A stretch of DNA of 64,000 nt from an uncultured Verrucomicrobiae bacterium (GCA_963772365.1 CAVYXA010000001.1:1664001-1728000); one strand, 5' to 3'; shown: positions 50,344-64,000, counted from the stretch's first letter. Notes: generated by a model not told the origin, from the sequence alone. Program-made: numbers and translations.

Positions 50344-52161
50344 TCATCGGGATCCTTTCCGAGCGAGCTCAGTTTCGATTTTTCCGAGCGGAAGACAATT
50401 CACGACGTCTGCTTTTGTTAGCCAGCCTTTGCGTGCGATGCCGATGCCGAACCATAAATCCTGCAATCGTTCGGTACAATGCGCGTCCGGGTTGATGACG
50501 CATCTTACTCCTTTTTGTTTCGCCAATGGCCACCACCGCCAATCCAGGTCGAGCCGTTTGGGTGCGGCGTTGAGTTCGATCCAAGTGCCGGTGCGCGCGG
50601 CAGCATCGAGAATCGCCGGGAGGTCGATCTGATAGGCGTCGCGTTTCAACAGCAATCGTCCGGTCGGATGGGCCAGCATGGTCACGAACCGATTCTCCAT
50701 TGCTCGGATCACACGCTTGGTCATATCCGCCTCGCTCAAACTGAAAACCGAATGCACCGAGGCGACGACAAAATCGAGTTGCGACAAAATCTCGTCAGGG
50801 AAATCCAGTCTGCCATCGCGGAGAATGTCGCATTCGACTCCGGCGAACAAACGAAAGCCATGGAATTTCTTGTTCAATCTGCGAATCGCCGTGGCTTGCT
50901 CGAGCAACTTTTTCTCGTCGATCCCATGTCCTTGCACCGAGCTTTTGCTGTGATCGGCAATGCCGAGATATTCCAGCCCCAGCTCCTGAGCCGCGGCTGC
51001 CATTTCTTCGAGCGAATTGTGACCGTCACTCGCGTGCGTATGGCAATGAAACGTGCCGCGAAGATTTTCTTTCTCGATCAGTTTTGGAAGAGTGTGATTT
51101 TCCGCGGCCTCGAATTCGCCGCAGTTCTCCCGCAATTCCGGCGGGATGTAATCAAGATCGACAGCGCGATAAAGATCGGCTTCGTCGTGGATCGTCGGGA
51201 TTTTCTTCGGGCGAATTTTCTTCGCGCGCGACGGCCGGGTGGTAGGGGCGGTTGATCTCAACCGCTCGAGCGATTCGGGTGAATCGCCCCTACCTTCCGC
51301 CGGCAATGGCGCGAGACGGTATTCGTTGAGGGTCCAGCCGCGCTTTAAGGCTCGATTGCGCATCTCGATGTTGTGCTCCTTGTTTCCCGTGAAATAGGCG
51401 AGCGCAAATGCGTATTCGGCTGAGTTCACTACGCGCAAATCGGTCTGCACACCCGAGCGAAGACGCACACTCGATTTGGTCGGACCGTGCGCAATGATCG
51501 ATTCCACCAGCGGATGCTCGACAAAGAACTTCGTGATTGCCTCCGGTTTTTTTGTCGCAACCAGAAGATCGACATCATGCACGATCTCTTTTCGGCGGCG
51601 ATAACTTCCTGCGACGTCGACCTGTAGCGTATCGGGATGGGCTGCCAAATCCGCACGCAAGCTTTCCGTTTCGGCTGCGACCTGGCCAAATTGAAACGAG
51701 CCGGCGTGCGACGCGCGACGAGCGATTGCTTCACAAAGTTTTTGCTGCGTCATTTCGCCAAAGCCCGGTAATTCGGCCACACGTCCGGATTCGCAGGCCT
51801 TGAGCAGATCGTCGATGGAGCTGACCTTGAGCTTCTCAAACAGCGCCTTGATCTTTTTCGGGCCGAGATTCGGCAACGAAAACAATTCAACAATCCCCGG
51901 CGGAAATTCCGCGCGCAGTTCTTCCAGAAACTTCAATGATCCGGTTTTCGCTAATTCAATGATCTTCTCCGCGATGCTTTTGCCGATGCCGGGAATTTTC
52001 TCCAATGATTCTTCATCCTGGAGATTGGAAATGTTCCCGCCGAAGGTCTCAAGAGCGCGCGCCGCGTTCGTATAAGCGCGGATCTTGAACGGATTCTCAT
52101 CCTTCAATTCCAGCAGCGTCGCGATCTGCTCGAGCGCCCCGGCGATTTGCTCTTTGGTCAT
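50344..52161 (-). CDS. polX: DNA polymerase X / PHP 3'-5' exonuclease
   Basis: ENPFKIRAY, GSYRR, DVD + D triad, FTG.KEHN, HCHT..SDG and PDAH motifs. Confidence 0.95.
   Translation of the reverse strand: MTKEQIAGALEQIATLLELKDENPFKIRAYTNAARALETFGGNISNLQDEESLEKIPGIGKSIAEKIIELAKTGSLKFLEELRAEFPPGIVELFSLPNLGPKKIKALFEKLKVSSIDDLLKACESGRVAELPGFGEMTQQKLCEAIARRASHAGSFQFGQVAAETESLRADLAAHPDTLQVDVAGSYRRRKEIVHDVDLLVATKKPEAITKFFVEHPLVESIIAHGPTKSSVRLRSGVQTDLRVVNSAEYAFALAYFTGNKEHNIEMRNRALKRGWTLNEYRLAPLPAEGRGDSPESLERLRSTAPTTRPSRAKKIRPKKIPTIHDEADLYRAVDLDYIPPELRENCGEFEAAENHTLPKLIEKENLRGTFHCHTHASDGHNSLEEMAAAAQELGLEYLGIADHSKSSVQGHGIDEKKLLEQATAIRRLNKKFHGFRLFAGVECDILRDGRLDFPDEILSQLDFVVASVHSVFSLSEADMTKRVIRAMENRFVTMLAHPTGRLLLKRDAYQIDLPAILDAAARTGTWIELNAAPKRLDLDWRWWPLAKQKGVRCVINPDAHCTERLQDLWFGIGIARKGWLTKADVVNCLPLGKIETELARKGSR
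51241..51294. repeat. GTAG-type REP doublet in frame inside polX
   Basis: GGTAGGGGCG...CGCCCCTACC, 54 bp. Confidence 0.8.
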
Positions 52162-61206: not shown

Positions 61207-62085
61207 GTGTTTGTTCATTGTCAGGTCGGGGAGGCGAATTCCACAACCCTCACCTGGCGGCGAAATCGATTACGATACACCTACGACCGGGCCTCCAACG
61301 TGAAGAAGCGGATGAATTACAAGAACGGCTCGTTTGTCAATTACACTTACGACACCGCCGATCGGATGAGCGATCTGGACATTTATCTCTCGGCATCGGT
61401 CCGGTTCTCGCATGAGCATTTTACGCTGGACAATATGAACCGGCTCACCGCCGTCGCCCATACCCAGGGCAACACCACCAACGATTCATACAGCTATTAC
61501 GCGGATGGCCAATTGCACACTGCCGCCTACGGCTGGACCACACGGGGGTTCACCTACAATCTGGATGCCGCGGGTAATCGCACCAGTGTGATCGATCAGG
61601 GCGTGACCAAGAATTATACCCCGAATGCGCTCAACCAATACACCGCTGCCGGGACAGACGCGGTGGCCAACGGAAACGTCCACGAGATCTCGACCTACAA
61701 GGGTGTGCTTTACAAATATTATGGCGACACCTGGCTTTCTTCAGCCACTGCTTTGGTCAACAATGTCTCCACCAAGTACGAGCTGTTCTACGATGCACTG
61801 GGCCGATGCGTGGAGCACAAGACCACCGTCGGAACAAACAATCCCACGAAGAATTATTATCTGTTCGATGGGGAGCATTGGACGGTGGAATACGAGACCA
61901 ACGGCTCGACGATCAAGAGCACGATGGTCTATGGCCTCGGGATCGATGAAGTGATCGCCCGCGCGATTGCCGGTGGTCAATACTTCCTGCCGGATCGCAA
62001 TGCCAATATCGCGGTAGTCACCGACATTACCGCGGCGGTGCTGGAGTCGTATCGCTATGACGCATTCGGCTTGCCGTCAGGATAG
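61207..62085 (+). pseudogene. Rhs/YD-repeat core fragment, truncated at both ends
   Basis: YTYD..., Y.LDAAGNR, N.LNQY, YDALGR, YG.GIDE and YRYDAFG repeats; stops before the conserved core end, at the repeat at 62080. Confidence 0.8.
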
Positions 62086-62143
62086 AAAGATAGGGGTCAG
62101 GCATCAATTCTGGATAGAAAGATAGGGGTCAGGCATCAATTCT
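62080..62143 (+). repeat. Perfect 32-bp tandem duplication covering the element left end
   Basis: GGATAGAAAGATAGGGGTCAGGCATCAATTCT at 62080-62111 and 62112-62143. Confidence 0.9.
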
Positions 62144-62416
62144 TGACAAGTAGCACTGGTGGGGTAAAAGAGCGGCTGTGGCCCGTAGTATTTGCATCGA
62201 ATATCCGGGGGGTGCCCGCAAGGTTTGTATTGCAAAGGTGATTTGGGAGCAGACGGTGGTGTCACAAAAATGGTTGGCGGACCGACTTGGAATGAAGAGC
62301 GCAGCGAACGTGAGCCAGCAGCTGCGTCGGCACCGGCCAAAATCGAAGCGATCGGATATCCCGGCTTCACTGCATAAATGGCTCTCTTTAGTCAAGAATT
62401 GATGCCTGACCCCTAT
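62122..62416 (+). mobile_element. Miniature element 1: internally deleted Y1/RAYT-like transposase element with 26-bp inverted ends
   Basis: ATAGGGGTCAGGCATCAATTCTTGAC and its exact reverse complement at 62391-62416; ORF 62178-62402 fuses MARSICIEYPG to the C-terminus RKVCIAKVIW...SAANVSQQLRR. Confidence 0.85.
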
Positions 62417-62458
62417 TCCTATTCCCCTATTCCTATTCCCTATTCTATTCCATCGCCA

Positions 62459-62953
62459 ATGAGATCTCCCCGGTCAGCGATTGGGCTTATCGTGGCTGCA
62501 ATTCTATGCTTCGACATTGCGGCAATGGCTACGCCGGAAAAGCAGTATAACGTTCGATACCGGTTCCAAGTGACTGATCGGCCTGATCAGCAACGGTTCG
62601 TGTTGACTCTCAGATCCGCAGACAAGAGGCCCATCTGTATTTACCGCGACAATTGGCCAAATGGATTTGGCCAAGTCAATCTCGGCGCTATGCGAGTAAC
62701 CCTTAAATCGTCGGAGGGAGAAATACGTGCCCATGACACGAATTTTGGGTTTTGCGCAGGTGACGCAAGCTGCTACATCCGTATCTTGCCGGGGGGAACG
62801 TTGACCGGTTTTATCGGCTATGAGCAATTTGGTAAACCGAAGACAATTGCCAAACTCGCTCGCCGTGAATTGCGTTTCCGCGTCTCGCCTATTGTGTGCG
62901 AAAAATGGCCGCCACCGCCGCCGCGATTACCGCCCTACGCACGCGGCCGTTAA
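62459..62953 (+). CDS. Secreted hypothetical protein between element ends (possible cargo or immunity-like protein)
   Basis: 164-aa ORF with signal peptide and several Cys. Confidence 0.6.
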   Translation: MRSPRSAIGLIVAAILCFDIAAMATPEKQYNVRYRFQVTDRPDQQRFVLTLRSADKRPICIYRDNWPNGFGQVNLGAMRVTLKSSEGEIRAHDTNFGFCAGDASCYIRILPGGTLTGFIGYEQFGKPKTIAKLARRELRFRVSPIVCEKWPPPPPRLPPYARGR

Positions 62954-63022
62954 CGAGCGCCGGGGAGATAAGATAGAAGATAAAGATAGGGGTCAGAAGA
63001 TAAAGATAGGGGTATAAAGATA

Positions 63023-63185
63023 GGGGTCAGGCATCAATTCTTGACAAGCAGCACTGGGGTGGTAAAACTACCGGGCGAGTCTGGAACGGCAGGCGCACGA
63101 TGTCTCCAGAGCGGAGCAAGGCCTGCGAGCGGCCGGAATCACGCAACAAGAATTACCCAAGCTTTCCGGAGCCGACCTTCGGATG
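63023..63185 (+). mobile_element. Miniature element 2: left end plus an internal transposase fragment, no right end
   Basis: 23-bp end at 63023-63045; interior reads NYRASLERQAHDVSRAEQGLRAAGITQQELPKLSGADLR. Confidence 0.7.
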
Positions 63186-63293
63186 CCGGAATATTCCAAG
63201 CTCGACCAGCCATGACAATTCGGACGCTTGTTCTTACATGAAAACATATCGATTCCTTCGGATAGGGAAGATAGGATAGGGGTAGGGAAGATA

Positions 63294-63491
63294 GGGGTCA
63301 GGCATCAATTCTTGACAAGCAGCACTGGGGTGATAAAACTACCGGGCGAGTCTGGAACGGCAGGCGCACGATGAAGAGCGCAGCGAATATGAGCCAGCAG
63401 CTGCGTCGGCACCGGCCAAAATCGAAGCGATCGGATATCCCAGCTTCACTGCATAAATGGCTCTCTTCAGTCAAGAATTGATGCCTGACCC
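63294..63491 (+). mobile_element. Miniature element 3 with both inverted ends
   Basis: Left end 63294-63316, right end 63470-63491; left half is near-identical to element 2 and right half to element 1. Confidence 0.85.
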
Positions 63492-63556
63492 TACTCTTCC
63501 TACTCTTGACCCGTATTCTTTCTCTCCTAAGTTCGTTTCGACGAGCCGCCAAAACC

Positions 63557-63582
63557 AGCACGCGAGGGCGCGTGCGCTACCC
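63557..63582 (-). repeat. GTAG-type REP hairpin
   Basis: Minus strand reads GGGTAGCGCACGCGCCCTCGCGTGCT. Confidence 0.65.
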
Positions 63583-63846
63583 TAACGAACCGAATAGCAA
63601 TCCTAGGCCGTAGGTGACGACGGCGACGATGACGCCGATCCAGGTCATTTCCAGGCCGGAAGCCCACCAGGAGCGGATCGTGATTAGTGATTTTAAGGCG
63701 CCGACGGCAAAATGGGCGAGCAGACTAATCGCAAATGACTCGAGCACGGCGTCGAGTCCGCCGGAGAAAAAGAATGGAATGATCGGAACGAATGCACCGA
63801 TCGCGGTGGAAATTGCGGCCGAGAATGCTGACGTCCAATAATTCGG
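63577..63846 (-). pseudogene. VIT1/CCC1 family transporter, C-terminal 90 codons cut off by the element end
   Basis: Hand translation PNYWTSAFSAAISTAIGAFVPIIPFFF...HFAVGALKS..TIRSWWASGLEM...VTYGLG; absent from the ORF track. Confidence 0.75.
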
Positions 63847-63857
63847 AATAGAGAATA

Positions 63858-64000
63858 GGGGTCAGGCATCAATTCTTGACAGGATAGAGTTAGGGTAGTA
63901 GTGAAGGCGAGTGGCGCGCAGTATTCGAATCGAGTCTCCCGGTGCTTTCTATCACGTGATGGCGCGTGGGAATCGGCGGGAAGCGATTTTCCGGAGCGAG
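63858..64000 (+). mobile_element. Left end of a putative autonomous Y1/RAYT-like element (continues beyond the window)
   Basis: Same 23-bp end at 63858-63880, followed by the transposase start. Confidence 0.8.
63911..64000 (+). CDS. Y1 HUH tyrosine transposase (RAYT / IS200-like), N-terminus
   Basis: MARSIRIESPGAFYHVMARGNRREAIFRSE is typical of the Y1_Tnp N-terminus. Confidence 0.85.
   Translation, partial: MARSIRIESPGAFYHVMARGNRREAIFRSE

Follow-up and report, generated by a model that had tools for sequence, protein, structure and literature searches.

IS200/IS605 elements are characterised by two different subterminal hairpins, fixed cut sites and a target of 4-5 nt. TIRtrons, with their TIRYT transposases, were described by Di Nocera et al. 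2013 (PMC3733652); the same group is TnpA-Y1 subclass 2.1 in Quentin et al. 2018 (PMC6006769) and RAYT group 1 in Bertels et al. 2017 (PMC5581495), where group 1 is presented as the most IS-like of the RAYTs. Subclass 2.1 is reported to be the second largest group of Y1 HUH transposases, found in 14.9% of strains (PMC6006769). For TnpA-REP, loose cutting near the bound site, a 5'-phosphotyrosine link and homology-free strand transfer have been described (PMC3333891, PMC3479197, PMC8266576). HUH Y1 cleavage generates a 3'-OH together with a 5'-phosphotyrosine link, which in the case of TnpA-REP could be resolved by any single-stranded 3'-OH (PMC3479197). A nick-extend-rejoin model for tandem amplification has also been printed for REPtrons and BIMEs (PMC3333891). 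The passages on TIRtrons in the accounts cited here contain no leader that travels with the end, no stacks of partial end copies (stutter), no position at which such copies stop and no mechanism, nor was a mechanism for subclass 2.1 found in the literature naming it. A literature search for the leader, the stutter stacks and a stop at end nucleotides 7-8 found no account, its scope being the literature other than subscription journals and Figure 9 and the supplements of PMC3733652. The element class is already published, and we found no paper describing the stutter of its ends.

The window (the whole stretch of DNA analysed, 64,000 nt) is C1:1664001-1728000 of a 3.35-Mb, six-contig metagenome-type assembly (genome G000) of an uncultured Verrucomicrobiae bacterium. 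The repeated end GGGGTCAGGCATCAATTCTTGACA matches seven times between 62093 and 63881 (none in 100 shuffles), representing six ends and a duplicated partial one. Each of the six ends is a copy of the 24-bp terminal inverted repeat (GGGGTCAG...TTGACA) that bounds a TIRtron (TIRYT, HUH Y1 subclass 2.1). The sole full copy in G000, of 1,111 bp, runs from 63858 to C1:1728968, so that its right end lies beyond the window. It possesses one intact 350-codon frame, flanked by inverted repeats with GGGGTCAG at 63858 (+) and C1:1728968 (-) that are complementary over 23-32 bp. A truncated IS4/IS5-like transposase frame at C1:1729453 (minus strand) adjoins this right end (by eye).

The TIRYT protein matches Pfam Y1_Tnp (E=6e-12) and possesses the motifs N61-H62-Y63-H64 and Y123-I-H125-L-N-P, which fit NH[YF]H and Y[IV]HLNP of PMC6006769 Table 1; H62, H64 and Y123 are invariant among 50 relatives. 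Its predicted fold is nearest to that of E. coli TnpA-REP (PDB 4ER8; Z 15.5, rmsd 2.4 over 153), with which the catalytic fold is shared. Structural alignment matches residues 261-350 to DnaA domain IV over a length of 87-90 residues (rmsd 3.3-3.6; Z 8.8 and 8.3). The same DnaA top matches were recovered with the C-terminal domain alone (E 0.2-0.4, low-confidence model), while a Pfam search of this domain gave no match; the fold comparison gives moderate support to a helical, DnaA-C-like C-terminal domain.

The element thus resembles published TIRtrons in having a Y1 HUH gene between long inverted repeats with GGGGWSAS, in both sequence motifs, in the DnaA-C-like C terminus (subclass 2.1.2) and in solo and paired repeats at other genome sites. 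It differs from REPtrons (TnpA-REP subclasses 2.2/2.5) in that its flanks are inverted repeats lacking a GTAG-tagged REP hairpin; a strong hairpin within the 24-bp repeat was not supported, as the repeat folds weakly (-1.2 kcal/mol). TIRYT scores 63 on the NCBIfam RAYT profile, under the cut-off of 80. Unlike the TnpA-REP system, the whole TIRtron unit and deleted forms of it occur at several loci, and its enzyme has an extra predicted dsDNA-binding domain. With IS200/IS605 (IS608, ISDra2) it shares the Y1 fold (Foldseek E 5e-5) and the lack of target-site duplication, whereas its ends are symmetric, its outer cut is loose and there is no evident host consensus. On the IS200/IS605 family profile NF033573 the protein falls short, with 21 bits against a cut-off of 55.

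The ends in the window and the tracts beside them are as follows (end nucleotides are numbered inward, the G run being nt 1-4).

61207-62079 (+): fragment of an RHS-repeat gene, truncated by the first join
62080-62111 (+): outer partial copy, a 13-nt leader plus end nt 1-19, beginning exactly at the join to the truncated RHS gene
62112-62124 (+): leader of the left end of a mini-element
62125-62413 (+): this mini-element, a TIRtron reduced by internal deletion to 289 bp (left 85 nt and final 201 nt of the full-length copy)
62125-62148 (+): left terminal inverted repeat of the 289-bp element
62390-62413 (-): right terminal inverted repeat of the 289-bp element
62414-62451 (-): stutter of GAATA plus 1-4 G; five successive tandem duplications collapse the tract
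62966-63022 (+): nested stutter (stops at end nt 0, 1, 5 and 8), collapsible as six tandem duplications
63023-63046 (+): terminal inverted repeat belonging to a deleted derivative in which the left end is fused to element nt 788-910
63260-63293 (+): stutter opening with a 14-nt leader common to C1:1140369 and C3:399204
63294-63492 (+): 199-bp deleted derivative with both ends (terminal inverted repeats 63294-63317, +, and 63469-63492, -)
63493-63528 (-): 36-nt leader/stutter reaching a mapped join; identical copy on contig C3 (about 397562-397608)
63577-63846 (-): VIT1-family gene fragment (3' part) flanked by two outward-facing ends; paralog C3:397245-397608
63847-63857 (+): 11-nt leader plus short partial copy, from the mapped join to the end
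63858-63881 (+): left terminal inverted repeat of the full 1,111-bp element
63905-64000 (+): start of the intact 350-codon TIRYT frame; likely GTG start 63911, HUH core NHYH...YIHLNP, DnaA-domain-IV-like C terminus

A first-pass annotation of this DNA had described a 32-bp duplication and five further purine-rich tracts as different stutters flanking every element end, and had read them as scars of nick/rejoin or reiterative template slip that might be a signature of the enzyme family. The duplication is exact (62080-62111 = 62112-62143, with zero junction ambiguity), and the other five tracts sit where they had been placed, outside the element end. Stutter at every end holds in the window, where five of the six ends are positive by the detector described below and 63858 has only a 6-nt copy; family-wide it is seen at approximately a quarter to a third of ends. 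Nor are the tracts wholly different, since three loci begin with the same 14-nt leader. Purine richness on a common strand is true of the window (0.71-0.81 on the inward-reading strand) and fails family-wide, the flanks of MITE family G175 being C-rich; it tracks the inherited leader. As a whole the observation is confirmed with these qualifications, and its interpretation is partly supported. Identification of the element as a described TIRtron, and of a non-target leader that travels with it, goes beyond what had been noted.

The interior of the 289-bp element has a 99.3% identical copy at C3:399204-398907 with different flanks. The RHS and VIT1 fragments (window 61258-62079 and 63483-63846) are 92-93% identical to copies in a second TIRtron cluster, C3:397245-406269. 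Differences between the VIT1 coding sequences are mostly silent while the adjoining stutter is identical, a pattern which suggests DNA derived from a related strain. Three ends (window 62080, L178 and L202) meet an RHS core at its end or close to it, and the L175 end lies inside a gene resembling a four-helix bundle (both by eye).

Ends were scored as positive where a copy of 7 nt or more spanned the boundary between leader and end, once ends with a flank shorter than 100 nt, repeated flanks and the outer copies in near-full duplications had been removed. By this detector 17/22 ends in G000 were positive (the 22 include one probable chance match, C3:776043), against 2/66 grafted control flanks and 167/5000 random positions. 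A stricter measure, exact tandem collapse, gave 13/22 for G000 ends, against 12/669 in shuffled controls. Positive ends were also identified in close relatives (2/16), genomes found by protein (20/56), genomes of the same class (33/96), metagenome contigs (35/136) and MITE family G172 (12/32), compared with 0-7% of grafted control flanks overall; as the genomes are related and the samples partly motif-selected, p-values from these sets overstate. The partial copies are real and family-wide, yet not at every end, in keeping with the proposed family signature. The G172 loci (L244, L386-L390, L430-L445) are MITEs of approximately 90 bp consisting of two ends and a variable spacer. Family G175 (L251, L392-L475; 64 motif matches) comprises MITEs of approximately 80 bp with variable spacers and C-rich leaders and contrasts with the stuttering ends, showing little stutter (10/65 ends against 14/195 controls).

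That the tracts are sequencing or assembly artefacts at a G-rich repeat might be suspected from the metagenome-type, six-contig nature of G000, and is scarcely credible. Short-read and long-read assemblies, assigned by record title, show similar rates (11/31 and 9/25 ends), chance matches to the motif in viral contigs are positive in only 2/88 cases, and the tract at 63493-63528 is repeated letter for letter on contig C3. Finished genomes point the same way: homologous ends on seven finished isolate plasmids carry partial copies in 6/17 hand-picked cases, and four further plasmid loci examined possess no such end.

Joins to host DNA were mapped by comparing flanks with paralogs or orthologs. 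The RHS paralog C3:405575-405422 (94.8%) diverges exactly at base 62080, the first base of the first copy, and at the 63858 end the join is 11 nt out. Among 17 unstuttered joins picked by eye (rows whose match ended 20-70 nt out being set aside), 15 lie 8-13 nt outside GGGG and two only 3 nt out. Stutter stacks, where present, begin at the host join itself or no more than a base or two from it. The host side of about 20 mapped joins has no consensus by eye. No direct repeat of more than 3 nt brackets any of 86 paired ends, which, with the mapped joins, bears out the earlier view that the tracts are not target-site duplications. Empty sites were sought in the same-genus genome G001 and five G172 relatives, which were too divergent or not syntenic at the joins; only 63846 aligned.

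The sequence next to the end is not host target. One 14-nt leader follows three unrelated host sequences in G000, bare at C3:399204 and stuttered differently at 63260 and C1:1140369, and four Iodobacter ends have one leader in common. At an orthologous Skermanella locus on three finished plasmids, TT6 has one plain end, while Skermanella rosea and Skermanella mucosa retain an old decayed end with a new end, carrying another leader, joined inside it; in S. mucosa the join is the common starting point of three units, with stops at nt 8 and 19. Leaders or end subtypes are combined in some stacks (C3:669846, L223, L457), a mixture that in-place slippage cannot produce. Together, the leader's recurrence after differing host DNA, the Skermanella joins and the mixed stacks suggest that a non-target leader of approximately 8-13 nt belongs to the moving end, and that stacks are mostly laid down on arrival. 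Further GGGGTCAG end subtypes occur in G000 (C1:122979/123058, C1:700678/708366, C3:669892), for which tblastn identified no matching transposase.

Four identical IS3-like elements with an rve domain were also identified in G000 (C2:15855-17153, C3:397609-398906, C3:400468-401766 and C5:11089-12387). All four have an end that abuts sequence of the GGGGTCA type; in one case the insertion interrupts a TIRtron end at nt 8-10, apparently with a 3-bp duplication. The pair C3:398907/C3:397608, considered as an end cut inside the repeat or as an excision footprint, is really one end split by such an insertion. From these positions the IS3-like element may target TIRtron ends; IS1397 targets REPs.

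Among the 120 innermost copies, stops fall in the G run (nt 1-4) for 58, at nt 5-6 for 4 and at nt 7-8 for 33; the remainder stop at nt 0 or deeper. Within nt 5-20, stops at nt 7-8 number 33/53, against 12.9% under a uniform null (p=6e-17, kin not being independent); the excess persists with one event per locus (25/40) and when G000 is left out (30/46). The commonest exact stop accounts for 9/28 unambiguous events. Four copies, three of them from G000, and S. mucosa are suggestive of a second hot spot at nt 19. On the outer side the boundary falls 4-13 nt from GGGG, and no dinucleotide is preferred there among 17 events. Of 57 copies that extend to nt 5 or further, 40 are full tandem duplications. 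At L048:2452-2722, L057:61-389, L066 and L223, ends are joined within their own transposase gene, where duplications of 70-330 bp start at the leader. Solo footprints were represented by one doubtful case among 30 leader+GGGGTCA sites in G000.

Similar tracts could in principle be made by the host alone, through slippage of the polymerase or template switching at microhomologies, either at a stalled fork or in the course of repair, with the transposase as only a roadblock or a break. A DnaA-like domain sitting on the DNA could block synthesis at one set position, short G-run units often show 2-3 nt of ambiguity, and L056, L161, L179 and L404 are pure tandem arrays. Against this, junction ambiguity among copies reaching nt 5 or beyond is at chance level (mean 0.97 against 0.82 simulated, p=0.40, n=37), and this chance-level microhomology together with the 7-8 stop argues against ordinary slippage. 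The phenomenon is also one-sided, exact tandem collapse being found on the inner side of 0/223 ends; none of the 8 ends of the IS3-like element in G000 shows stutter, and single stacks have mixed leaders. A purely host origin is consequently regarded as improbable, and slippage may add the short G-run units. Of the two origins first proposed for the scars, nick/rejoin fits the sharp stop at nt 7-8, while homology-driven template slip is weakened by the chance-level ambiguity. A PolX-PHP-like frame at window 50344-52161 (-), seen by eye, is a candidate host gap-filling polymerase.

The reading preferred here, to which we give a probability of about 0.5, is that the TIRtron HUH transposase joins its tip repeatedly and without homology on arrival, and so would produce stacks of leader plus the first bases of the repeat. 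The DnaA-like C-terminal domain would hold the enzyme on the inner half of the repeat, while the HUH domain would cut the inward-reading strand where the leader begins, outside GGGG at a distance that is only loosely measured. The enzyme would stay on the 5' end of the leader as a phosphotyrosine, a link that any free 3'-OH could resolve. A host 3'-OH would give insertion or an adjacent rearrangement; one produced by a cut or stall at nt 7-8, in an end that is resident or has just been copied, would give one extra stutter unit. Later moves would take part of the stack along, so that leaders would come to contain scraps of end. A resemblance to a DnaA box is seen in the inner half of the repeat (end nt 16-24; window 63873-63881, for example), with at least 7 of 9 positions fitting in 24/55 ends found by protein against a background of 1.5%, and this half is a possible binding site. 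The TTGACA of this inner half corresponds to the sigma-70 -35 hexamer and lies just upstream of the transposase start, and possibly forms part of a putative autoregulated transposase promoter.

A scheme in which a nick at the leader start is filled in and resealed in place, was rejected, as it fails on first copies that are shorter at the 5' side (17/57) and on mixed leaders; for the same reasons repeated joins are preferred. Several observations count against repeated joining. Studied Y1 enzymes cut defined sequences, whereas the outer boundary here is loose and shows no dinucleotide preference. The full tandem duplications among the longer copies would be given by in-place models too, and slippage is possible at the 58 of 120 innermost copies that stop in the G run. 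The two joins only 3 nt out, and the 65 G175 ends with little stutter, are also unfavourable to it.

The same enzyme could instead nick the strand that reads outward, at C|TGACCCC (C|T within CTGACCCC), after which host polymerase would extend the 3'-OH outward through end and leader, and the new 3'-OH would attack the 5'-phosphotyrosine, adding a unit. The template for this proposal is the BIME amplification model of Ton-Hoang et al. (Fig. 7B; PMC3333891), so that a model of this kind is already in print for REP arrays. It is favoured by the 7|8 boundary, which reads C|T on the opposite strand, like the known cut of TnpA-REP (PMC8266576): at the commonest exact stop the duplicated segment opens with the T of C|T, which matches strand transfer by TnpA-REP. 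The stops found at nt 8, 14, 19 and 25, however, do not fall at C|T. The proposal also leaves unexplained the stacks that begin at the host join, the mixed leaders and an outer boundary that stays constant at 4-13 nt out whatever the copy depth (nt 7, 19, 25 or about 270). Fold-back onto the other end would give mirrored leaders, and these bear on the proposal in both directions. Leaders are mirrored per locus in the G172 MITEs (mean 6.4 nt against 2.7 nt permuted, 0/5000; 10-12 nt in three copies), with p=0.005 (n=6) within one subfamily, which hints at copying between ends; mirroring is absent in G000 (p=0.70) and in the other G172 subfamily (p=0.69). On balance, nicking of the outward-reading strand seems the less probable of the two readings, and is the strongest rival to repeated joining.

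For the biology of the family, these findings would point to a route that is undescribed, here proposed only tentatively: a DnaA-like-anchored HUH nuclease acting on symmetric repeats, with a measured cut outside them, a carried leader, capture of any free 3'-OH, that of its own end included, and fold-back copying of one end from the other. The stacks give exact coordinates for the chemistry of subclass 2.1, namely a putative cut lying 8-13 nt beyond the repeat, a hot spot for stops at nt 7-8, and neither homology nor target duplication. TIRtrons reshape genomes through one-ended joins, deleted derivatives and captured gene fragments, and an enzyme able to link a tagged 5' end with any 3'-OH would be interesting for its mechanism and possibly for practical use. 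If this reading is true, each stack would be a written record of successive joining attempts, and subclass 2.1 would be a large active transposon family with a chemistry of its own.
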